Sequence record: PV700625
DNA length: 64,000 nt
Direction: 5' to 3' (one strand)
Source of the DNA: Escherichia phage MET-P1-301
The notes below the pieces were generated by a model. The model was not told where the DNA came from, ran no database searches, and worked only from the letters and a program-made list of their open reading frames with translations. A program made the translations under genes and the position numbers. This document shows, piece by piece, positions 1 to 9,001 of the stretch. Positions within the stretch are counted from its first letter, which is position 1; every line of letters starts with the position of its first letter.

Positions 1-980
1 GTTCCCTTACCATCCCTTTGCAAAATTTTAAAATATCCTTAACAATCTCTTAACAGTTCTCACATCTTCTTAACAACTCTTCAAAGGTCTTAACAGTTTC
101 TTAACAGAACTGACAAGGATGTAACAGTTTTCTAACAAGATTTGATAGGGCTTTACAGAATCTTAACAGATGACTAACAAGAGCTAACAAGTTAATTTTA
201 AAGAGTTATTTTGTTAAGATAATTAACAAGTTCCTAACAAGTGTTTAATCTTTTTAACAAACTATTAACATGGTCACTATCTCTTTCTTATCGTTCCCTT
301 TCTCTCTTAGTGATTCCTTAAACATACCTCTTAAAAGCTCTCTATAGCCCCTTATAAGCTCTTTTAAGCCTCTTCCTAGTAGTTACACCCCAACTATACA
401 GACACCTCTTTATAGAGCTTTACAGGAGCTTTTAAGGCTATGTCAAAGGTTCTTACAAGGCTTTTACGTGGTCTTAACAGAGATTTAACAAGGGGCTAAC
501 AAGTCTCTAACAAGCATAACTATGTAGGGTTTGTTAAGAAATTGTTAAGAAAATGTTAAGGGGCTAGCATTTACGTAACTTTTAAGCTATCTATCACGTA
601 ACTTTATAGCCTCTTTTATGTAACTTTGAAGTGACTTCATAGCCCCCTTTTAGTAGTTCACAAGAATACTAACGAGATGATAAAGCTTACACCCTTATAA
701 GATTCTTTTAAGGCTCTAGGAAGCTCTATAAAGGGCTTTTTAGAGTGGGTTAATATGATTGCTTAAGTTAGGTTGATAAGGCTGTTATAGAGCTTTATAG
801 AGCGTTTTAATGGTTGCCCTTCCCTTTCGGGTTATGGGCTTATATTTAAGTTGATTTGATAAGAGGTTATAGAGTAGACTATAGAGTTATTGCTTTTTAA
901 GGTACGAGATAGATTCTATCGAATTAGTGGGATAGCTTCTAGAAAGGAAAGGGAAAGGGATTGTATAAGGATTCGATAGA
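1..980. repeat. Non-coding region with phased arrays of short repeats; candidate origin / terminal / regulator-binding region
   Basis: No ORF of 60 aa or more. TTAACA[AG]/CTAACAAG occurs more than 15 times in 40-290 and again in 470-520, mostly at 11-12 bp spacing; inverted TGTTAAG x3 at 530-560; GTAACTTT x3 at 580-630; TATAGAG pairs at 780-890. Confidence 0.5.
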
Positions 981-1034
981 CGTAAAAAGCCCCATTTAAG
1001 GGGCTGTAAGGTATCTGGGGCTATTTAGCCCCGC
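981..1034 (-). terminator. Tandem GC hairpins ending the leftward early transcript
   Basis: GGGGCtatttaGCCCC (1017-1032) and AGCCCCatttaaGGGGCT (988-1005); on the minus strand the second is followed by a TTTT run. Lies just downstream of the last leftward ORF. Confidence 0.5.
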
Positions 1035-1042
1035 TGCGTCGA

Positions 1043-1291
1043 TTAGTTGTACCCTTGTTTGCTGTAGTACAGGGAGACAATCAAATCACCCCAATAATGG
1101 TAATGATGTTCATCGTTTAACGCCTCTTTTACTGCATCTTTCCAGAAGTCATCAGTAGGGTTATAATCTGGGATAACTTGCTTGATAACTGTCTTCACTA
1201 ATGAAAAGCATTCATCAGTTCCACCAATATCAAATTTAACGTCCAGAGTGTAGCAGCCATAAGCATTAACAGTAGCGCGGATAGTAGCCAT
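1043..1291 (-). CDS. hypothetical early protein (82 aa)
   Basis: ORF preceded by family-A leader cassette and GGAGA Shine-Dalgarno. Confidence 0.5.
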   Translation of the reverse strand: MATIRATVNAYGCYTLDVKFDIGGTDECFSLVKTVIKQVIPDYNPTDDFWKDAVKEALNDEHHYHYWGDLIVSLYYSKQGYN

Positions 1292-1365
1292 TTTTGAATC
1301 TCCTAGTTTAAGGTATTTATCTAGTGGGAGGTTATTACCTCCCGTTGATTAGTAATTTACTGCAT
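1292..1365 (-). promoter_or_regulatory. Early-gene leader cassette, family A
   Basis: Conserved ~75 nt directly 5' of the ATG: GGGAGG/CCTCCC-type hairpin, then ACTAAATAAAGTCCTTAAACTAGGAGATTC-AAAATG. Confidence 0.55.
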
Positions 1366-1619
1366 GTTGGCGTATGTTGCAAGCCTTTTTCGTTGTATTT
1401 TGTAAGAATCTCACAAGATAAAACATCATATTTTTTAATCGCGTTACCTTTTTCGAGGTCAAAGAATCCGAACGCTTTACCGTCTTTGAATCCGACAACC
1501 TCGTAAGACTCTTTGATGATTTCACCATTGAACAAATCACTTTCGATACGATGGAATAGTGCTACATCCTCTTTGTCGGTTGCAATTTGTAAAAGTGTGG
1601 TCAGTTCGACGTGTTCCAT
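1335..1619 (-). CDS. hypothetical early protein (94 aa)
   Basis: ORF with family-A leader upstream; its C-terminus reads through the hairpin of the next cassette. Confidence 0.5.
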   Translation of the reverse strand: MEHVELTTLLQIATDKEDVALFHRIESDLFNGEIIKESYEVVGFKDGKAFGFFDLEKGNAIKKYDVLSCEILTKYNEKGLQHTPTCSKLLINGR

Positions 1620-1692
1620 TTTGAATCTCCAGTTTAGGATTTTATTTAGTGGGGAAGGTCATTCCCTCCCCGTTGATTGACAATTTACAGAT
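1620..1692 (-). promoter_or_regulatory. Early-gene leader cassette, family A
   Basis: GGGGAAGGtcattCCCTCCCC hairpin plus conserved SD-ATG context. Confidence 0.55.
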
Positions 1693-2215
1693 TTTTGATT
1701 GTCTCGTCAATATCTTTTTCAATATCTTTTAAAGTTTTTTCTAAGTTCTTGATATTGAAAGTTAAACCTTCACCGAGCGTTTTATAGTGACCATTAGGTC
1801 TATGGTCATAGAGTTCGATTTCTTCCACATCGGATAAGTTTACCATCTCACCATTTGCAGCATAGGCTATTGACACAGTATTTTCAGGTGCGTCGTAAAA
1901 CTTATTCAGTGACTTGATAGCACGTTCATAAGCCATTTTATAACCATTTAAAAGGTTTTTAACGTGATTGTGAACGTTTTTACAATCATCTAAGTAAAGA
2001 CCTAAAAACATCGGGAGAAGTTCCGCGACAGCTTGCATAAAGTGAGAGACTACAACGGTGGAAACATTACGACGATGGACGTAATAAGCCCCGTTTTCTG
2101 ATTTGGTAATGGTTGCAAAGTGTACACCATTGCAACGAAATTCATAGGTATCTTTAACAGGCTTAGACATTACAGCATTTGAACGAATGAAGTTGATAGC
2201 TTGAAATTTGTTCAT
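1685..2215 (-). CDS. hypothetical early protein (176 aa)
   Basis: Long ORF with family-A leader upstream. Confidence 0.55.
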   Translation of the reverse strand: MNKFQAINFIRSNAVMSKPVKDTYEFRCNGVHFATITKSENGAYYVHRRNVSTVVVSHFMQAVAELLPMFLGLYLDDCKNVHNHVKNLLNGYKMAYERAIKSLNKFYDAPENTVSIAYAANGEMVNLSDVEEIELYDHRPNGHYKTLGEGLTFNIKNLEKTLKDIEKDIDETIKNL

Positions 2216-2290
2216 TTTAGAATCTCCAGTTTAGGACTTTATTTAGTGGGAGGTTATTGCCTTCCCGTTGATTAGTAATTTACTTGTTTT
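2216..2290 (-). promoter_or_regulatory. Early-gene leader cassette, family A
   Basis: GGGAGGttattgCCTTCCC hairpin plus conserved SD context. Confidence 0.55.
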
Positions 2291-2433
2291 GATAGCTGAT
2301 TGCAAGCAATTTTTTAAGTTTATCTATAAAGAATCTTTTAAGTTAATCCCTTTTAGATAAACCCCTCGAACAAAGTTACCAATGTCAAGGGGAGTTGTCA
2401 ACACTTTTTTAAAAGTTTTTTGTAAGTTGTTGA

Positions 2434-2779
2434 TTAACTGATGAATATTTTTTCAGGTTTTACATAGCTGATACGCTGGCTTTTTAGCAGGTCATCCCAG
2501 ATTAGCGCGGCAATATGAGAATAGCCGGATTCACGTAAAATCTTCATTGTTTTACTTCTCGTTTCAAAACGGCTTGCGTAGTATTCACTGTTCAAGGTAG
2601 TTTTATTCCCTTCGTTATCTGTATGGATGATTTGCATTACCTGAAAGGGCTTACATCCTCGCCTTTGTTCCACTGCTCAAAGTATTTTAGGCACTGCATA
2701 GGCGACATCTTATCACTGACTTGAGTTGACCAAGATGAATCTTCTTTATTGGTAATTACAGTTACATAAGCCATTTTAG
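2434..2779 (-). CDS. hypothetical early protein, interrupted by an apparent frameshift near 2670
   Basis: ATG at 2779 sits directly behind a leader cassette; that 45-aa frame merges into the 79-aa ORF 2434-2673 after a one-base shift at an AAA run. Confidence 0.4.
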
Positions 2780-2853
2780 AATCTCCTAGTTTAAGGACTT
2801 TATTTAGTGGGGAAGGTCATTCCCTCCCCGTTGATTAGTAATTTACAGACTTT
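2780..2853 (-). promoter_or_regulatory. Early-gene leader cassette, family A
   Basis: GGGGAAGGtcattCCCTCCCC hairpin plus SD context, same as the copy at 1620. Confidence 0.55.
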
Positions 2854-2855
2854 TA

Positions 2856-3098
2856 TCAGGCTTGTCTAGTCTTTTCAATGATAATTTCATATTGACCATC
2901 GACGCTATCAAAATAAATGCCGTCGCTATCTTCTGTCTTAAAGTAACATTGTATATCATCACTGGCGGGATAGTCTTGTCTTGCTATCTGGCAAACTTGA
3001 ATAGCATTTTCTTTACTCCCTGTAAACTCCTCAAGCCCTTTAAAATCGCATGAATGACCGTTACAAATAGAAAGGATGAGATAAATGGTTGTCAACAT
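2856..3098 (-). CDS. hypothetical small Cys-containing protein (80 aa)
   Basis: ORF with hydrophobic N-terminus; no leader cassette, sits 68 nt downstream of the previous gene. Confidence 0.4.
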   Translation of the reverse strand: MLTTIYLILSICNGHSCDFKGLEEFTGSKENAIQVCQIARQDYPASDDIQCYFKTEDSDGIYFDSVDGQYEIIIEKTRQA

Positions 3099-3166
3099 GA
3101 TTTAAGCCTTCTAAATGGCCCTGTACGGGCCTTAAGTTGGAAGTTGGTGTCTTTGTACTGATTAGC

Positions 3167-3724
3167 CTAAAAGTCTTTTAAATTGCGTTCTGTGAGGTTT
3201 GCCGTGATTTTATCCAGTAGGTCACAATACACAGAGCAATCCCCGCTATTCTGCACAATTTTCGCCATACTTAACAAATCTTCGTCAATATCTCCTAAAT
3301 TACGGTTAGTTGTATCAGGTACAAAGAAAGGCGCATATATTGCACTAAATTTCGTCGAGTGAAGGCCAACAATCCAATCCTTATCAAAGTATCCGGTAAA
3401 ACTGGCGATATCACTCATGTTGTCACAAGAATAATCGTCTTCTAGCTCTTCCTCTGGGATATCCATTTCAATGACAATCACGTCCTGCGTTTCCATTTGG
3501 AAAGCTGCCGTAATAAGTCCAGACTCTAAAGCGTTTTGAATGCAGCGTTCACGGATGTAAGAATCTTCCTCATCTTCCAGACATTCCGTTTTGATAACCT
3601 TGTTCATTGGGTAAACGTAGAAACAATCGTCCATGTAGGAGCAGTTCCAGATTCCTTCCGGCTTGTCGCCACCATTCAGCAGGTTTACAAAGTTTTTGAG
3701 GGTAGTCCCGTGATAGCATTTCAT
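3167..3724 (-). CDS. hypothetical early protein (185 aa), acidic
   Basis: ORF preceded by family-B leader cassette. Confidence 0.5.
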   Translation of the reverse strand: MKCYHGTTLKNFVNLLNGGDKPEGIWNCSYMDDCFYVYPMNKVIKTECLEDEEDSYIRERCIQNALESGLITAAFQMETQDVIVIEMDIPEEELEDDYSCDNMSDIASFTGYFDKDWIVGLHSTKFSAIYAPFFVPDTTNRNLGDIDEDLLSMAKIVQNSGDCSVYCDLLDKITANLTERNLKDF

Positions 3725-3810
3725 TTTTGAATCTCCAGTTTAGGATTTAGTGGTAAAGCTCTTTATCTGGGGCTTACTTTATCGAACTATAAGCCCCTTG
3801 TAAAGTACTT
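3725..3810 (-). promoter_or_regulatory. Early-gene leader cassette, family B
   Basis: Perfect hairpin GGGGCTTA-13 nt-TAAGCCCC, then AGATAAAGAGCTTTACCACTAAATCCTAAACTGGAGATTCAAAAATG. Confidence 0.55.
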
Positions 3811-4012
3811 TAACGATTATTTTTGACAACTTTTAAAACTGCAAGATAACCTAAGCAATAAGAATCACCGAAGAGAGTTCTACCCATGAAAGAATCCTCT
3901 TTGATATCCTTTGCAGTGACAGTTTTTTCTACGCCGTGGGAAAGGACTACATCCCCAACTTTGATGTCTTTGATGTGTGTTGTTTCAATGGTTAAGCCGT
4001 TAATATTAGCCA
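3810..4012 (-). CDS. hypothetical early protein (start refined to the ATG at 4012, 67 aa)
   Basis: The conserved leader/SD places the start at 4012; the longer track ORF to 4058 would read through the leader cassette. Confidence 0.45.
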
Positions 4013-4088
4013 TTTTAGAATCTCCTAGTTTAAGGATTTTACTTAGTGGGAAGGTCATTCCCTCCCCGTTGATGAGTAATTTAATCTA
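4013..4088 (-). promoter_or_regulatory. Early-gene leader cassette, family A
   Basis: GGGAAGGtcattCCCTCCCC hairpin plus SD context. Confidence 0.55.
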
Positions 4089-4163
4089 TCTAGAAATCAG
4101 TGTCAACAGTTTTTTAGAGTTCTGCGTAAATTGCGTCACAAATATCACGAAAATCATGATTTG

Positions 4164-4516
4164 TTAAATTACGTTGCAACCATGTTGCAAAAAGTCAGCA
4201 ATTGCAAAATTTGCGTCATACTCGACAGATAGCCACACTTTCACGGCAAAACGAAACATTTTTAAATCAAGCTCTTTATTCATTACCTTTGATTTGCCTA
4301 ACATGTCAGCCATTTCATATTGTGCACCGTCTAGCGTGATACCTGCTGCAACGTCAGCCAATGAGTTTTTACACTTTCAACGTCTAAGATAACACTTTGA
4401 ATCTTCCCGATAATATTGTGCAATGTCTCATCAGGTGCTGATGATGTAATAACATTAATCCGGTTAACGGTTAAACGTGCTTTTAAGATTGATAACTCAC
4501 GGTTATTAATAGTCAT
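4164..4516 (-). CDS. hypothetical early protein, two overlapping ORFs probably joined by a frameshift near 4340
   Basis: Track ORFs 4331-4516 and 4164-4361 overlap in different frames; family-B leader sits upstream of 4516. Confidence 0.35.
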
Positions 4517-4600
4517 TTTAGAATCTCCAATTTAGGATTTAGTGGTAAAGCTCTTTATCTGGGGCTTACTTTATCGAACTATAAGCCCCTTGTAAAGTAC
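4517..4600 (-). promoter_or_regulatory. Early-gene leader cassette, family B
   Basis: GGGGCTTA...TAAGCCCC hairpin plus SD context. Confidence 0.55.
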
Positions 4601-4629
4601 TTTATACTAAATGCAGCTTTTACCTTTTA

Positions 4630-4872
4630 CTATGATGTAACTTGCTGCGCTATTGCCGCATACATCTTGATAAATTCTGCGCAAACGGCCTTCGTAGTGG
4701 ACTTTCCAGCTAGTTGGAATCTTTTTCCCGTATCCGGTAGCAGTTTTTGGAGTCCTGCTACTTGCCAATCTAAGATATGTTGCTCAGCTTGTAAATCTTC
4801 AAAGTGCATCACACCATCAACATAGTGACGTAGAGTGACATTTAAAGTACGACCGTTGTTAGTAGTATACAT
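4630..4872 (-). CDS. hypothetical early protein (80 aa)
   Basis: ORF preceded only by the SD part of the cassette (catttttgaatctcctagtttaagg). Confidence 0.45.
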   Translation of the reverse strand: MYTTNNGRTLNVTLRHYVDGVMHFEDLQAEQHILDWQVAGLQKLLPDTGKRFQLAGKSTTKAVCAEFIKMYAAIAQQVTS

Positions 4873-4895
4873 TTTTGAATCTCCTAGTTTAAGGC

Positions 4896-5054
4896 TTATT
4901 TTGACAGTTCACTAATTAAGACATCAAAGATTATATCATTATCTGCTACAGTTGCAACACCAGTGATATAATCAATTTCTAAGATAACAACAACTTTCGT
5001 ACATAAACCGTCATCTATATCATTCCAGACAACTTTATCACCTGCACAAAACAT
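4896..5054 (-). CDS. hypothetical small protein (52 aa, MFCAGDKVVWNDIDDG...)
   Basis: Hand-translated ORF below the 60-aa track cutoff, directly behind a family-A leader at 5055-5132. Confidence 0.4.
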   Translation of the reverse strand: MFCAGDKVVWNDIDDGLCTKVVVILEIDYITGVATVADNDIIFDVLISELSK

Positions 5055-5132
5055 TTTTTGAGTCTCCTAGTTTAAGGACTTTATTTAGTAGGGAGGTTAT
5101 TGCCTCCCCGTTGATGTGTAATTTAATCTATC
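5055..5132 (-). promoter_or_regulatory. Early-gene leader cassette, family A
   Basis: GGGAGGttattgCCTCCCC hairpin plus SD context. Confidence 0.55.
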
Positions 5133-5144
5133 TAAAAATCAGTG

Positions 5145-5477
5145 TCAACAGTTTTGTTTTCGTTTGCTCAATTCTTGAACAATTACAGCGTAGTAGTCTT
5201 TTAAGTCACTGATATTTAAAGCATTTATCAGAGAATTATAATCATCGACTAACTGGAAATCATCCTTGAAGATGTCACTTATCTGATAGGTTTTCGCTTT
5301 GAATCTGAAGCTCATCTCTAGCCGCTTTATTTGCTCATCACTGAGACGCCCTAGAAAGCTCTCTACAAGGTTATTGCTAACCTGCTGTGTGATTGCCTTA
5401 TTTGCTAGATTATAGGCTTTATATGCCTTATATAGCGCGAAAATGGCAATGATTGCAGTGATACCAGTCATTAACAT
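5145..5477 (-). CDS. hypothetical membrane protein (110 aa)
   Basis: N-terminal hydrophobic helix (GITAIIAIFALY). Confidence 0.45.
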   Translation of the reverse strand: MLMTGITAIIAIFALYKAYKAYNLANKAITQQVSNNLVESFLGRLSDEQIKRLEMSFRFKAKTYQISDIFKDDFQLVDDYNSLINALNISDLKDYYAVIVQELSKRKQNC

Positions 5478-5550
5478 GGTGTTTCCTCTTTACGTGATAC
5501 TTTGCCATTTACAGTTATCTCATAAGATTCTAATAAATCGCTTTTAGACT

Positions 5551-5766
5551 TTACAGGGCTTTTAAAAGTATCATCATAAACATTGACTTGCAATACAGGT
5601 TTTTATACTCCCTGCAACTATTCCATAAGCAAATCACTACACGACGGCCTTTGATTTTTCCGTGTAACCATTCCATAACATCATGACTATTCCTTGATGT
5701 TTCAATAAAATCAATTTTGTTGAGTAACTTGCTTAGATTTTCACGGATTTTATTTGATAATTTCAT
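5551..5766 (-). CDS. hypothetical early protein
   Basis: ORF behind a family-B-like leader; C-terminus may be frameshifted. Confidence 0.35.
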   Translation of the reverse strand: MKLSNKIRENLSKLLNKIDFIETSRNSHDVMEWLHGKIKGRRVVICLWNSCREYKNLYCKSMFMMILLKAL

Positions 5767-5850
5767 TTTTGAATCTCCAGTTTAGGATTTAGTGGTAAAG
5801 CTCTTTATCTGGGGCTATCTTAACAGCTTGATAACCCCATGTAAAGAAAT
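5767..5850 (-). promoter_or_regulatory. Early-gene leader cassette, family B variant
   Basis: GGGGCTATC...GATAACCCCA hairpin variant plus the conserved downstream block. Confidence 0.5.
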
Positions 5851-5854
5851 CTAT

Positions 5855-6367
5855 TTAGTTCTTAAAGATATTCATCACTGAATCTTTTAATGATTCCAAG
5901 CGTTCTAACACTTCAGATTCTGCGTCTGCGTTGTTCACTTCCTCTTTTAACCTATCCTCTAAATCATCGCCGTCACTATAGCACCAGTCGAAAGCATAAC
6001 CAATATAAAAGCTATCTAAAACCGTGTTGCCATTTGCATCTACAACTTTCGCGGCAATGTTATACTCTGAAGCCTCTAAATCTCTTTCTAGTTCTTTTTG
6101 TAAGCTTGTATAAGCCTCTTTTGATGGATTTTCCCGGCCTTGTTTTGCGTAGTCACTTGAAAGCTGTTTAAGGCTGTAATGTAAAGGGATTGCATATTTA
6201 AATTCATTATGCTGGCAGTTAGGATTTTTAACAGTCACACCGCCTTGATGGTCATCTGTAAATTCCCAATTATCAAGATTATGGCTTGCTTCAAAGCAAT
6301 TAACAGCTTCATAGATAATAGTGAATTTTTCTTTTACAACTTCAAAGGTAGCGTCTACAGTTTTCAT
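5855..6367 (-). CDS. hypothetical early protein (170 aa)
   Basis: ORF with family-B leader upstream. Confidence 0.5.
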   Translation of the reverse strand: MKTVDATFEVVKEKFTIIYEAVNCFEASHNLDNWEFTDDHQGGVTVKNPNCQHNEFKYAIPLHYSLKQLSSDYAKQGRENPSKEAYTSLQKELERDLEASEYNIAAKVVDANGNTVLDSFYIGYAFDWCYSDGDDLEDRLKEEVNNADAESEVLERLESLKDSVMNIFKN

Positions 6368-6450
6368 TTTTGAATCTCCAGTTTAGGATTGAGTAGTAAG
6401 TTCTTTATCTGGGGCTTAAGATATCAGCTTTTAAGCCCCTGTAAAGTACT
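6368..6450 (-). promoter_or_regulatory. Early-gene leader cassette, family B
   Basis: GGGGCTTAagatatcagcttTTAAGCCCC hairpin plus conserved block. Confidence 0.55.
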
Positions 6451-6453
6451 TTA

Positions 6454-6744
6454 TCAGTTAATTTTCAGTTTTGCATAGCCTCTCATTGTACGAATGGGGG
6501 ATGTTAAGGCTACGCGTCTAATATATGCCTTTTTCGTGTATACATTTGTCTTCCCGATAGTGTTTACACATGTAAAAAGGTTTATTGGTGAATTTTTTAA
6601 TTTCAACTGTCTATCAGTCTTCACGCCCCATCTTACATCAGATTGTTTTCCGTTGTCAACCACTTTCCCGCCTAACTTTTTCGCCATGATGCGAGCGTCA
6701 TCACGAGTTTTTGCAGGAACTACAACGTTTTTGATAATAGCCAT
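6454..6744 (-). CDS. hypothetical early protein (96 aa), basic
   Basis: ORF with family-B leader upstream. Confidence 0.5.
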   Translation of the reverse strand: MAIIKNVVVPAKTRDDARIMAKKLGGKVVDNGKQSDVRWGVKTDRQLKLKNSPINLFTCVNTIGKTNVYTKKAYIRRVALTSPIRTMRGYAKLKIN

Positions 6745-6830
6745 TTTTGAATCTCCAATTTAGGATTGAGTAGTAAAGCTCTTTATCTGGGGCTTACTTT
6801 ATCGAACTATAAGCCCCTTGTAAAGTACTT
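6745..6830 (-). promoter_or_regulatory. Early-gene leader cassette, family B
   Basis: Near-identical to the copy at 3725-3810. Confidence 0.55.
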
Positions 6831-6832
6831 TA

Positions 6833-7213
6833 TCAGTTAATTTTGAATATTGTCACATAACCATCACTACCAATTATTTGAGACGCTCCAGCTTTCTCCA
6901 CTGAATAGCCCATATTTTCAAGATGGTAAACAGCATCATCATAACCATATGCGCCACCTTGATAACGTCTCTTATTGCAGCTTATCAGGTTTTTACCACG
7001 TCCTGCCAGTGCATTCAGTACGGCTTTTTCACTTGATAACGTACCGTCTATCATTGTTGCCGTGTAATGGTTGATTTTATTCCCGTTGATATCATACTTG
7101 AAATTAAACGAGTGAACAATAATAACGTTACCTTTAAATTTTTCATCAAGTGCCTTCTCCAGTGCGTTGCGGAAGTTGTCTTTGTTGATGAATTTCGGTG
7201 CACGATAAGCCAT
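6833..7213 (-). CDS. hypothetical early protein (126 aa)
   Basis: ORF with family-B leader upstream. Confidence 0.5.
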   Translation of the reverse strand: MAYRAPKFINKDNFRNALEKALDEKFKGNVIIVHSFNFKYDINGNKINHYTATMIDGTLSSEKAVLNALAGRGKNLISCNKRRYQGGAYGYDDAVYHLENMGYSVEKAGASQIIGSDGYVTIFKIN

Positions 7214-7298
7214 TTTTGAATCTCCTAGTTTAAGGTTAATGTAGTAAAGCTCTTTATCTGGGGCTTAAGATATCAGCTTTTAAGCCCCTGTAAAGTAC
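7214..7298 (-). promoter_or_regulatory. Early-gene leader cassette, family B
   Basis: GGGGCTTAagatatcagcttTTAAGCCCC hairpin plus conserved block. Confidence 0.55.
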
Positions 7299-7301
7299 TT
7301 T

Positions 7302-7508
7302 TTATTTATCGTAGTAGTAAATTGCTGTCTGTCTTGTAAACTTCTTAGTGTTTCTTGTAAGGTAGCAATTAGAATTAATAGCCGTTTCTACATAGTTGCA
7401 ATAGTCGGCTTCTGATATTCTGGACCATACGCCACAGATTTTCATGTAAAAACGTTTTGCCTTTGTGTTAACGTTAGTTGTAACCATTAATTCACGATAG
7501 TAAGTCAT
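7302..7508 (-). CDS. hypothetical early protein (68 aa), first gene of the leftward early array
   Basis: ORF behind an SD-only cassette remnant (7509-7560). Confidence 0.45.
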   Translation of the reverse strand: MTYYRELMVTTNVNTKAKRFYMKICGVWSRISEADYCNYVETAINSNCYLTRNTKKFTRQTAIYYYDK

Positions 7509-7744
7509 TTTTGGATTCTCCAGTTTAGGAAGTGGGCTGGCTTGCCCGTCTGATGCAAATATTAGATAACCATACTCAAAGAGTCAATAGGAATTTTAAA
7601 AATATTTTTGCAAAAACTGTAATGAAACGGGCGCACGCGACTACCACAAAACAGAACTACAATCAAGAATTATTTTTCAATCCGCTACAAATTTTTCTGT
7701 TGACTTTTATTTCCAGATGTGGTAGCCTTGTGAGAAATGGCGAC

Positions 7745-7945
7745 ATTCCCACCTGCACCCACCTACCTGCACAATTCTAAAATGATTTTTCTTGCCCGAC
7801 CTGAGCGGGGTCTGCACGTTTTGAAAATGAAAAAGCTCTTTGGAGATTACCTGCACAATTTGAAAATGAATTTTCTCTTTGGAGTTCAAAATTTTCTCTA
7901 CAGATTTCTCTACAGAACTCTACCTGCACAATCCTAAAATAAAAA
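7745..7945. repeat. Three ~25-bp direct repeats (ACCTGCACAAT-NNN-AAAATGA) in a 500-bp non-coding gap; candidate early promoter / operator cluster
   Basis: Copies near 7757, 7848 and 7921; CTCTTTGGAG also duplicated. The gap separates the small-ORF array from the 8015-37323 block. Confidence 0.45.
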
Positions 7946-8014
7946 GCCCTCCTTACCTGAAAAATTTAACAGATAAGAAAGGCTTAGTCTATTGTGAATA
8001 TCCTATAGAGTTTC

Positions 8015-8800
8015 TTAGTTCTTTGCGTCTAAGAAGGTAACTTCCGGTGAAGAGAAAATTTCCTCAACATTCTCATCAGTTCTTGCATAGATATATGTGT
8101 CTGCATCACTGCCAAATGTTACTGCAATTCTGTGATTGCTCTTCGACAGGTGGGTAACTAGAGCGTTACTTAGAGACATCTTTTCAACCGGAGGGTTACT
8201 TTGATGTATCTTGCCTTTTCTTCGTCTGAAGAGGGTAACTGCATCATCAGTGAACGTTACTACACCTGCAAAGTATTCTGGTTCACAGTAGTTCTTCCAA
8301 CCTGAGCGTAACTTGTGGTACATCTCCCCTTCGTAGACATACAGATAGACATCTACATTCTTCATCACCTGATTAATGATAACGGTGACGGCTTGAGGGT
8401 CAAGTCCACCGATGCCTGCACCAATCATAGGTAAACCGACTTTCTTCAACTGATTAACTTCACAGTATCTGTTAAGCTGTTTCAAAGATGATTCTAAAGC
8501 ACTGTATCGGGCATCTTTACCAGTCTTAAGCTGAGTGTAAAGGTTAGCTATACGGCCTTGTTTTAAACGTGCTACAGAGAAATTACCTAGTAAGTTCTCA
8601 CAGGGCTTGTGGCCTATGCCACCTGCATACAGATAAACTTCTGTATCAGTCTCATATGCTTTTGGGTAAAGTTTAGAAATCTTGTCAGCGATACCTGCAC
8701 CCATTAAATTCATACAGTTGCAACCGTGACCAATGACGTCAAACTTACCTTTATCAAATGCGGCAAAGATATCACCATTGATGATTTTTACAATACCCAT
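8015..8800 (-). CDS. Macro-domain protein (TARG1/Poa1p-like ADP-ribose-processing domain) with an unassigned C-terminal extension
   Basis: N-terminal half carries GDIF...DVIGHGCNCMNLMGAGIA...LPMIGAGIGGLDP, matching the TARG1-type macrodomain pattern as I recall it. Confidence 0.6.
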   Translation of the reverse strand: MGIVKIINGDIFAAFDKGKFDVIGHGCNCMNLMGAGIADKISKLYPKAYETDTEVYLYAGGIGHKPCENLLGNFSVARLKQGRIANLYTQLKTGKDARYSALESSLKQLNRYCEVNQLKKVGLPMIGAGIGGLDPQAVTVIINQVMKNVDVYLYVYEGEMYHKLRSGWKNYCEPEYFAGVVTFTDDAVTLFRRRKGKIHQSNPPVEKMSLSNALVTHLSKSNHRIAVTFGSDADTYIYARTDENVEEIFSSPEVTFLDAKN

Positions 8801-9001
8801 TTAACATCTCTCCCAAGATTCTTTATCTTCTGAAGGTTTTACACGTTGTCCTTCATGGTCTACCCAGATACATCCACAACCTTCACAGATTACTGGCATT
8901 GCATAGCCAGCTTTAAAGTCATCTTCAGTGATAAGACCTTTTAAGTCACCTGTATCACGTCCGAACATTTCGATAGCACAGTCTTTGCAGAAGTCAGCCA
9001 T
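8801..9001 (-). CDS. hypothetical Cys-rich small protein (66 aa)
   Basis: CxxC...CEGCGC pattern suggests a zinc-binding fold. Confidence 0.4.
   Translation of the reverse strand: MADFCKDCAIEMFGRDTGDLKGLITEDDFKAGYAMPVICEGCGCIWVDHEGQRVKPSEDKESWERC

Follow-up and report, generated by a model that had tools for sequence, protein, structure and literature searches.

The small genes of one array in Escherichia phage MET-P1-301 stand, with few exceptions, behind copies of a single kind of cassette. The stretch analysed here, 64,000 nucleotides of sequence record PV700625 (the window, with positions counted from its first letter), holds an array of 16 such genes (1043-7508; 45-185 amino acids as read in the window), every one of them on the minus strand, so that the cassettes are read as the reverse complement of the window. 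Each cassette is likely to be a self-contained early-expression module for the small gene that follows it, consisting of a sigma-70 promoter, a stem-loop and a ribosome-binding site, and at the same time to be a site of recombination. Directly readable are the geometry of the promoters and its conservation, the structures and their covariation, a strand bias, and a link between the cassettes and breakpoints of synteny. The phage is a Felixounavirus: over positions 1000-8000 the best match, full-length and 92% identical, is Escherichia phage vB_EcoM_Shy, and the 256 phage records matched by this segment are essentially all Felix O1-like (Felixounavirus).

The shared leader and the predicted promoters

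The leader, AAACTNGAGATTCNAAAATG, occurs 13 times with three or fewer mismatches (0.16 expected by chance), always on the minus strand, between 1289 and 7526; a fourteenth, more diverged copy is found at the ATG at 5054. Every copy lies directly 5' of a minus-strand ATG, all 14 are contained within 6.3 kb, and the rest of the 64 kb has none. The first-pass annotation, made from the sequence alone, was thus right about a repeated leader that ends in a common Shine-Dalgarno (SD)-ATG context. It had counted about 18 small open reading frames (ORFs), almost every one with a cassette of about 75 nucleotides (nt). The count is 16 gene units, three of them frameshifted; 14 of the 16 do carry the leader, the genes at ATG 3098 and ATG 5477 have no cassette, and the conserved unit measures ~82-97 nt from the -35 (in family B, from the 5' arm of an outer helix) to the ATG. 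The SD sequence GGAG is 8 nt 5' of the ATG in 13 of the 14 leaders and 7 nt at ATG 1619.

Thirteen of the 14 leaders are preceded by a hairpin. Two families of six copies each had been proposed, and both numbers hold. The family A copies are at the ATGs at 1291, 1619, 2215, 2774, 4013 and 5054; the exact GGGGAGGG/CCTTCCCC stem attributed to the family is confined to 1619 and 2774, the copy at 4013 is shorter by one C, and the other three stems are GGGAGGT/ACCTCCC, GGGAAGGC/CCTCCC and GGGGAGGC/CCTCCCT. The family B copies are at the ATGs at 3724, 4516, 5766, 6367, 6744 and 7213; five have the perfect GGGGCTTA-N13-TAAGCCCC hairpin that was ascribed to all six, and the sixth, at 5766, is GGGGTTATC-N10-GATAGCCCC, a variant with covarying arms. 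Missing from that list were the cassette at ATG 7508, with a third type of hairpin (GGGCAAGCCAGCCC; the layout of family A, a different stem), and ATG 4872, which has the leader only and no hairpin. That the stop codon of the gene upstream lies inside some cassettes is also borne out: in nine of the 13 promoter-bearing cassettes it is inside or no more than 3 nt from the 5' edge. TAA at 1687-1685 is the first half of a -10, TGA at 5147-5145 falls within a -35, and TAA at 3812-3810 begins a family B outer arm. Four cassettes depart from this: at 2215 and 4516 the stop is ~130 nt and ~28 nt, respectively, upstream of the edge, at 4013 the upstream gene is frameshifted and its stop not assignable, and 7508 has no upstream gene.

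All 13 of these cassettes have -35 and -10 hexamers of sigma-70 type at a spacing of 16-17 nt, several of them found also by an independent consensus scan. The order in family A is -35 (TTGACA, TTGCAA, TTGACG or TAGACA), 17 nt, TAAATT, ACTAAT, CAAC, the hairpin, an A-rich spacer, CCT(T)AAACT(A)GGAGATTC, 4-5 nt (AAAA, TAAA or AAAAA) and the ATG. Start is predicted at the purine of CA, 7-8 nt past the -10; the messenger RNA (mRNA) would begin AAC-GGGG..., and the hairpin would therefore lie ~3 nt from its 5' end (about +4 to +24). The order in family B is TAAAGTAC-TTTACA-(N)-GGGGCTTA-loop-TAAGCCCC-AGATAAAGAGCTTTACC...GGAG...ATG. Its -35 is TTTACA and its -10 (TAAAGT, TATCTT or TAAGAT), 17 nt downstream, is formed by the final six bases of loop and stem. 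Transcription is predicted to start at the A directly after the stem; the hairpin would therefore be within the promoter and absent from that promoter's own transcript. The "phage-specific promoter" that had been among the first candidates for the cassettes accordingly keeps its noun and loses its adjective: these are predicted promoters of the ordinary host sigma-70 type at fixed geometry, with the family B -10 in a hairpin loop.

For the conservation of this geometry, 221 distinct cassettes were extracted from the early regions of relatives (wV8, Felix O1, AYO145A and ASO1A; Mooglevirus Mordin, Michonne and Sf14; Kolesnikvirus Tian, SPARTY and SeKF_13; IMG/VR contigs), and 97 family A and 100 family B copies were analysed. 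The family A -10 is TAnnnT in all 97, and the -35 (TTGnnn or TAGACA) is exactly 17 nt upstream in 95, in surroundings almost without information; the A-tract upstream of the -35 carries 1.0-1.7 bits. In family B, TTTACA is invariant (100 of 100) and the spacer is 17 nt in 96 copies; the loop is variable, yet its 11 different hexamers all keep TA...T (TAnnnT in 100 of 100). Judged as sequence, such conservation is the signature of sigma-70 recognition in copies that share ancestry. In Felix O1, crude reverse transcription-polymerase chain reaction (RT-PCR) has genes 16, 20, 21 and 22 peaking at 5 min; genes 16, 20 and 21 are downstream of cassette repeats.

A second -10-like TAAAGT, without its own -35, lies just upstream of the family B -35. 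It was considered as the real -10 of that family and set aside (most copies have no -35 for it, and TTTACA-17-TAnnnT is invariant); it may be a weak second promoter. Two readings borrowed from T4 were also dropped: GGCTTA of family B as a MotA box (a proper -35 is present, the -10 spacing is wrong and no MotA-like factor is reported) and RegB-type cleavage of the GGAG leader (the "RegB" labels of relatives sit on a lysozyme/SLT-like protein).

The cassettes are also the places at which related genomes part company. Between the window and 15 relatives, 29 of 33 distinct synteny breakpoints fall in cassettes (28% expected, p ~1e-12). An ORFan module encoding 52 amino acids (4896-5054, minus strand) has a leader copy on each side and is missing from most relatives; the second flank of this insertion is the leader-only copy, CCTTAAACTAGGAGATTCAAAAATG, at 4870-4892. 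Its ORF is ~100% identical in 25 records, and the surrounding 7 kb reaches ~92% identity in its best match; by these identities, the module is one that has spread recently. A TTGCAA-16-TATAAT promoter match (4957-4930) lies inside it. In Citrobacter phage Mordin (~7504-7633) two tandem family B cores are joined at CTTTAC repeats (...AGATAAAGAGCTTTACCAA|CTTTACATGGGG...), an arrangement that looks like the scar of recombination between cassettes.

The stem-loops and the strand on which they act

The cassette hairpins stand out from shuffled sequence (z -2.8 to -4.3); weaker folds are those of the 7508 leader (z -2.0) and of two full-length family A cassettes (z -1.4 and -1.5). Covariation in the stems had been proposed as a check of the hairpins, and compensatory changes between copies are indeed found. 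They occur in the family B inner stem at pairs 3, 7, 8 and 9: pair 3 goes from GC to UA in the Erwinia phages, pairs 7/8 exchange TA for AT and AT for TA, and pair 9 occurs in four types. The family B flanks TAAAGTACTTTA (overlapping the -35) and TAAAGAGCTTTA (+4 to +15) are complementary and make a second, outer helix, which is 89.5% paired, against at most 53% with the partner slid, and which shows one GC-to-UA double change. RNAalifold finds both helices de novo, and the whole family B cassette folds as an interrupted helix of ~20 bp (9 + 11 bp, with an internal loop; z ~-4), in the window as in Erwinia phage Tian. Family A comes in 33 hairpin variants with several unrelated stem sequences, and all fold (GGGGAGGG/CCUUCCCC, GGGAGG/CCUCCC, GGGGC/GCCCC and GGGA/UCCC are examples). 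An outer helix was considered for this family also and rejected: its stems are 6-8 bp and the folds hold no consistent further helix. Rfam 15 covariance models, run over 1-9000 up to E = 1, return only a chance MIR390 match (E 0.11).

The mismatches suggest on which strand the structures act. Read on the gene strand, the non-Watson-Crick stem pairs of family B are 20 G.U, no A.C and three others; the folded stems of family A contain 16 G.U pairs on that strand, a few variants having unpaired stem positions, and most variants with a G.U pair fold more stably in the sense than in the antisense direction. A wobble bias of the gene strand argues for a structure in gene-strand RNA rather than in duplex DNA and, with independent events few, it points to hairpins that act as such RNA. 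Past the hairpins the predicted folds show an AU-rich, almost unstructured leader and an unpaired start codon, and only a marginal helix of 3-4 bp reaches the first bases of the SD GGAG. Masking of translation is therefore unlikely, and translational control by the hairpins, which had been another candidate, is not supported.

Processing of RNA had been a candidate as well. The hairpins might be RNase III (or RNase E) sites at which a long polycistronic early transcript is cut to monocistronic mRNAs in the manner of phage T7, the flanks serving the nuclease. RNase III substrates such as the T7 R sites are in the ~20 bp size class, and so is family B with its outer helix (an interrupted ~20 bp on the gene strand). 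A cut in the lower stem would, moreover, leave a 5' end near the predicted promoter start, and the AU-rich, unstructured leader past the hairpins suits the proposal. Family A does not: 6-8 bp stems without a consistent outer helix are too short. Nor does processing explain why TA...T is invariant in an otherwise variable family B loop, or why the family A -35 is kept exactly 17 nt upstream amid flanks that are not conserved. As an account of the cassettes, we regard this one as unlikely; processing is implausible for family A and possible for family B only, as an added role and not as the main reason for the cassettes.

A still less probable proposal is that the hairpins are plain terminators or attenuators between genes and that the promoter hexamers are incidental. 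It has annotation on its side ("rho-independent terminator", a WebGeSTer annotation in some relatives, on family A hairpins of ASO1A, KhF2 and KhF3), and also the stem-loop of a comparable element of phage RB49, which likewise lacks a U-run and lowered downstream lacZ as rrnB T1 does; the wobble bias of the gene strand suits any role at the RNA level. However, no cassette hairpin has a U-tract. The sequence that follows is ACTAAATAAAG in family A or AGATAAAGAG in family B, and a consensus terminator scan of 9 kb finds two sites, neither in a cassette, which agrees with the first-pass statement that these are not simple terminators. U-tracts are found on all genuine Felix O1 terminators, the two at the cluster boundaries included. 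The family A hairpin is 3' of its own promoter, even at the first promoter, which has nothing upstream, and the -35/-10 conservation is not what an incidental match would show.

We think it very improbable that the inverted repeats are DNA operators, at which a dimeric phage or host protein bound to GGGGCTTA-N13-TAAGCCCC and TAAAGTACTTTA would shut early transcription off. The arms do overlap the promoter core, the inner arms are 21 bp (two helical turns) apart from centre to centre, and TAAAGTACTTTA is a perfect 12-bp palindrome overlapping the -35. Nevertheless, arms within one genome swap compensatorily (TA to AT, AT to TA, GC to UA), with the pairing kept and the sequence not; that the inner stem covaries within the window itself, at 5766, argues against a protein that reads a fixed half-site. 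Variants of the 12-mer lose their internal palindrome and keep their complementarity to the downstream 12-mer, and recognition of duplex DNA does not predict 20 G.U to 0 A.C on one strand. The promoters of the phage N4 virion RNA polymerase are hairpin promoters, and a hairpin centred on the -10 recalls them. Promoters of phage-specific transcription, whether of the N4 type or dependent on a phage factor, are nonetheless scarcely credible here: both the hexamers and their spacing are of canonical sigma-70 type, neither a phage RNA polymerase nor a recognisable specificity factor is reported in the Felix O1 genome paper (PMC3185647), and in RB49 the same design functions in E. coli that is not infected.

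How the cassettes may work, and their likeness to known elements

From this geometry and these structures we infer promoter activity, start sites and the roles of the stem-loops as follows. Host RNA polymerase with sigma-70 would read each cassette as an early unit for one small gene. In the 5' to 3' direction the unit would comprise an AT-rich stretch, usually with the upstream stop; -35 and -10 17 nt apart; a CA start; a GC-rich stem-loop; and an unstructured leader that ends in a standard SD GGAG 8 nt 5' of the ATG. In family A, and at 7508, the stem-loop would be transcribed, 3-4 nt from the predicted 5' end, and could guard the mRNA 5' end against decay by RppH/RNase E. The best reading of the family A hairpin is a 5'-terminal mRNA stabiliser, because it is in its own transcript and because it accompanies even the cluster's first promoter, which has no upstream transcript to end (no gene precedes that promoter, yet an A-type hairpin lies past its start in several genera: in the window, wV8, AYO145A and Mordin). 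In family B the arms flank the -10, and the ~20 bp structure would exist only in RNA reading through from the upstream gene. It might attenuate or end upstream transcripts, or mark or protect their 3' end, possibly after RNase III cleavage: for the upstream messages, then, an attenuator, a 3'-end structure or a place of processing. The same DNA would restart transcription for the next gene. Being long, near-identical repeats, the cassettes would also be places of recombination where related phages gain, lose and exchange gene modules.

Several points weigh against this account. The literature searched holds no transcript mapping for any Felixounavirus, and for that reason the start sites and promoter use are predictions only. 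The one crude timing experiment does not fit throughout: gene 19 of Felix O1 is also downstream of a repeat, an A copy, and its peak came at 25 min, not at 5 min. The copies are related by descent, probably with gene conversion, so that counts of conserved and covarying copies overstate the independent events; the compensatory changes possibly represent only two to five. The breakpoint test says in part no more than that exchange involves whole genes and that cassettes fill the space between them. Family B transcripts may start alternatively from the upstream TAAAGT, in which case the hairpin would be at their 5' end. No U-run follows either hairpin, so that terminator activity, if any, would be non-canonical; in family A, efficient termination at the hairpin would cut short the cassette's own transcripts. 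The ~3 unpaired 5' nt ahead of it are borderline for end protection.

The cassettes resemble PeSLs (promoter-early stem-loops), which are known from the T4-type phages RB49/phi1, PST/T4 and nt-1/KVP40 (Arbiol et al. 2010, PMC2839356; Comeau et al. 2014, PMC4122927). In RB49/phi1 the whole PeSL gave very high lacZ expression and the RB49 stem-loop alone cut lacZ expression as strongly as rrnB T1 (PMC2839356); promoter activity, terminator activity of the stem-loop, and recombination of the copies with formation of mini-circles are demonstrated only for RB49/phi1 (PMC2839356, PMC4122927). Both have an AT-rich stretch with the upstream stop, sigma-70 hexamers at -35 and -10, a stem-loop with polyG/polyC arms that includes G-T pairs and, at the end, SD and ATG. 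[quoted passage not shown] Both elements have many copies among small ORFans of a hyperplastic region, in which indels between close relatives are bounded by the motif, and the SD contexts are alike (GGAGAATCAAA-ATG in RB49, GGAGATTCAAAAATG in the window). The RB49 PeSL sequences, read directly, have the same layouts, including a -10 in the loop with the start right after the stem, and no U-run. The hairpin upstream of RB49_190 (ORF190), GGGGAGGATAACTCCCC, is nearly the same as a family A variant, GGGAGGGATAACCTCCCC; it is placed between -35 and -10, whereas its family A counterpart comes after the start.

The differences are just as definite. The lineage of the window phage is Ounavirinae, not Straboviridae; the family A hairpin, at +4 to +24, is 3' of the predicted start, an arrangement absent from the five PeSL subclasses; in family B a further, outer helix joins the -35 flank to +4 to +15; and one standard 5' untranslated region (UTR) is common to all cassettes of the window. 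Homology of the window's cassettes with the RB49 PeSLs could not be demonstrated: 15 of the latter, made into an nhmmer profile, score E 0.12-0.17 on the family A cassettes of the window. The same profile gives E 5e-5 for a cassette of Erwinia phage Tian, of the same subfamily as the window phage, and that cassette and RB49_227 have 18 identical bases (CCCATCGAAACGAAACAA). In outline, then, the cassettes can be explained as PeSL-type elements with predicted promoters, in a phage group in which they have been recorded only as repeats; a hairpin in the transcribed 5' end (A) and a promoter embedded in a 20-bp foldback (B) go beyond the published PeSL description.

Two other kinds of element bear on the separate families. 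Emory, Bouvet and Belasco are said to have described, in 1992, 5'-terminal stem-loops that stabilise mRNA in E. coli, of the type of the ompA 5' UTR. Family A is like these in having a stable hairpin a few nt from the predicted mRNA 5' end, followed by an unstructured leader and the SD, and differs from them in the ~3 unpaired nt at that end, which is borderline for protection. The RNase III sites of the T7 early region are intergenic, interrupted hairpins of ~20 bp, similar in size and shape to the long form of family B; they are not promoters, and family A is far too short for the comparison.

The same sequences are in earlier records under other names. The Felix O1 paper (PMC3185647) has them only as direct repeats of 57 bp and 39 bp, does not list them among its promoters, and did not find promoters for the region; the family B core corresponds to the 57-bp repeat, the family A promoter to the 39-bp one. 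The wV8 record, NC_012749, annotates them as direct repeats DR_1 to DR_9, and the wV8 paper contains no discussion of these repeats. In other records the family A hairpin is labelled "terminator" directly after an annotated promoter.

The cassettes one by one, their surroundings and their spread

All cassettes are on the minus strand, and their start sites are predicted from promoter geometry (the CA dinucleotide, or the base after the stem). The first of the cluster is the third-type, A-like cassette at 7506-7587 (-35 TTGACT 7587-7582; -10 TAATAT 7564-7559; start ~7551; hairpin GGGCAAGCCAGCCC 7547-7534; SD 7521-7518; ATG 7508). The family B cassettes are at 7211-7302 (-35 TTTACA 7294-7289; -10 TATCTT 7272-7267, in the loop; inner hairpin 7288-7260; start ~7259; SD 7225-7222; ATG 7213; upstream stop TAA 7304-7302); at 6742-6832 (TTTACA 6824-6819; TAAAGT 6801-6796; inner hairpin 6817-6789; start ~6788; ATG 6744; outer arms TAAAGTACTTTA and TAAAGAGCTTTA); at 6365-6453 (TTTACA 6445-6440, with a 16-nt spacer; TATCTT 6423-6418; inner hairpin 6439-6411; start ~6410; ATG 6367); at 5764-5853, the covarying variant (TTTACA 5845-5840; TAAGAT 5822-5817; inner hairpin GGGGTTATC..GATAGCCCC 5838-5811; outer 5' arm TAGATTTCTTTA; start ~5810; ATG 5766); at 4514-4604 (TTTACA 4596-4591; TAAAGT 4573-4568; inner hairpin 4589-4561; start ~4560; ATG 4516); and at 3722-3812 (TTTACA 3804-3799; TAAAGT 3781-3776; inner hairpin 3797-3769; start ~3768; ATG 3724), where the upstream stop TAA opens the outer arm and the whole cassette folds at -24.2 kcal/mol (z -4.3).

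The family A cassettes are at 5052-5148 (TTGACA 5148-5143, containing the upstream stop TGA; TAAATT 5125-5120; start ~5112; hairpin 5109-5090; SD 5067-5064; ATG 5054); at 4011-4106 (TTGACA 4106-4101; TAAATT 4083-4078; start ~4070; hairpin 4067-4048; ATG 4013); at 2772-2868 (TAGACA 2868-2863; TAAATT 2845-2840; start ~2832; hairpin GGGGAGGGAATGACCTTCCCC 2829-2809; ATG 2774); at 2213-2305 (TTGCAA 2305-2300; TAAATT 2282-2277; start ~2269; hairpin 2266-2248; ATG 2215); at 1617-1710 (TTGACG 1710-1705; TAAATT 1687-1682, its first three bases the stop codon of the upstream gene; start ~1674; hairpin 1671-1651; ATG 1619); and at 1289-1382 (TTGCAA 1382-1377; TAAATT 1359-1354; start ~1346; hairpin GGGAGGTAATAACCTCCC 1343-1326; ATG 1291).

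Canonical terminators on the minus strand bound the cluster at both ends. One, GCCTTTCTTATCTG..CAGGTAAGGAGGGC with a T-run (7946-7983), belongs to the preceding operon and bounds the cluster upstream (the counterpart of Felix O1 t13); the other, the intrinsic terminator AGCCCCTTAAATGGGGCT followed by TTTTT (988-1005), closes it (the counterpart of t23). A separate hairpin at 3117-3131, GGCCCGTACAGGGCC and then AUUUAGAA, stands ahead of the cassette-less gene 2856-3098, and its wV8 equivalent is annotated as a rho-independent terminator. Ten proteins of the array were tested: their PHROG family is of unknown function, or they have none, and there are no Pfam matches. The three frameshifted units are homologues of AYO145A_025, _021 and _018 (intact lengths 342, 405 and 297 nt), broken by single-base deletions relative to phage AYO145A at ~2649, at ~4365 and ~4191, and at ~5604; these are either sequencing errors or real pseudogenes.

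Repeats of other kinds flank the array. The upstream terminator and the first cassette promoter are ~400 bp apart, with few genes between them, and in this gap 7767-7940 has four plus-strand copies of CTGCAC(A/G)(A/T)TTnnAAAAT, for which there is a weaker match at position 18; relatives have a small opposite-strand gene annotated in the gap. Past the cluster terminator, the non-coding stretch 1-560 is dense with short repeats, among them (C/T)TTAACA(G/A), nine times on the plus and three times on the minus strand, and CTAACAAG, six times. Its counterpart in relatives is 1.4-1.6 kb without genes, and this repeat field may be an origin, or a packaging or terminal region.

The core TGCTATAGT-aaCCCC-ATCGAAACGAAAC (the -10 in or next to the hairpin, the start and the leader) is found in four phage groups: Kolesnikvirus (Erwinia phage Tian, 7296-7366), Krischvirus (upstream of RB49 ORF227), Drexlerviridae (Shigella phage Sd1 and Klebsiella phage KOX1) and an Aeromonas phage. 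With the 84-nt Tian cassette as query, blastn touched 527 records, the majority at marginal E-values. The -10-to-leader core TGCTATAGTaaCCCCATCGAAACGAAAC, with its -10 in the hairpin loop, is likewise present in Drexlerviridae and an Aeromonas phage. Because of this distribution, the 18-base identity of Tian and RB49, and the RB49 hairpin that is so near a family A variant, it is possible, if rather doubtful, that the cassettes belong to a pool of modules exchanged among unrelated enterobacterial phage families. With the same doubt, the 20-bp structure of family B might in addition be a nuclease site nested on a promoter. Were that so, read-through and newly initiated transcripts would share a 5' end. 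Felix O1-like cassette sequence at ~90% identity is also in GU169904 (Staphylococcus phage SA1) and MG065664 (Campylobacter phage A132), which suggests that these entries are chimeric or contaminated.

Read as expression modules, the cassettes account for repeats that have been annotated as "direct repeats" or mislabelled as "terminators" in more than 250 Felix O1-like genomes, and they supply predicted early promoters for a region in which the Felix O1 genome paper found none. PeSLs are unreported for Felix O1-like phages, and the idea behind them, of mobile regulatory cassettes that drive the shuffling of ORFans, is thereby extended beyond the T4-type phages. The cassettes, as compact natural expression units, may find a further use in phage engineering. 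Salmonella/E. coli typing and biocontrol make use of Felix O1-like phages, in whose genomes the cassettes mark the sites at which accessory early genes, whose products probably act in host take-over, are swapped.

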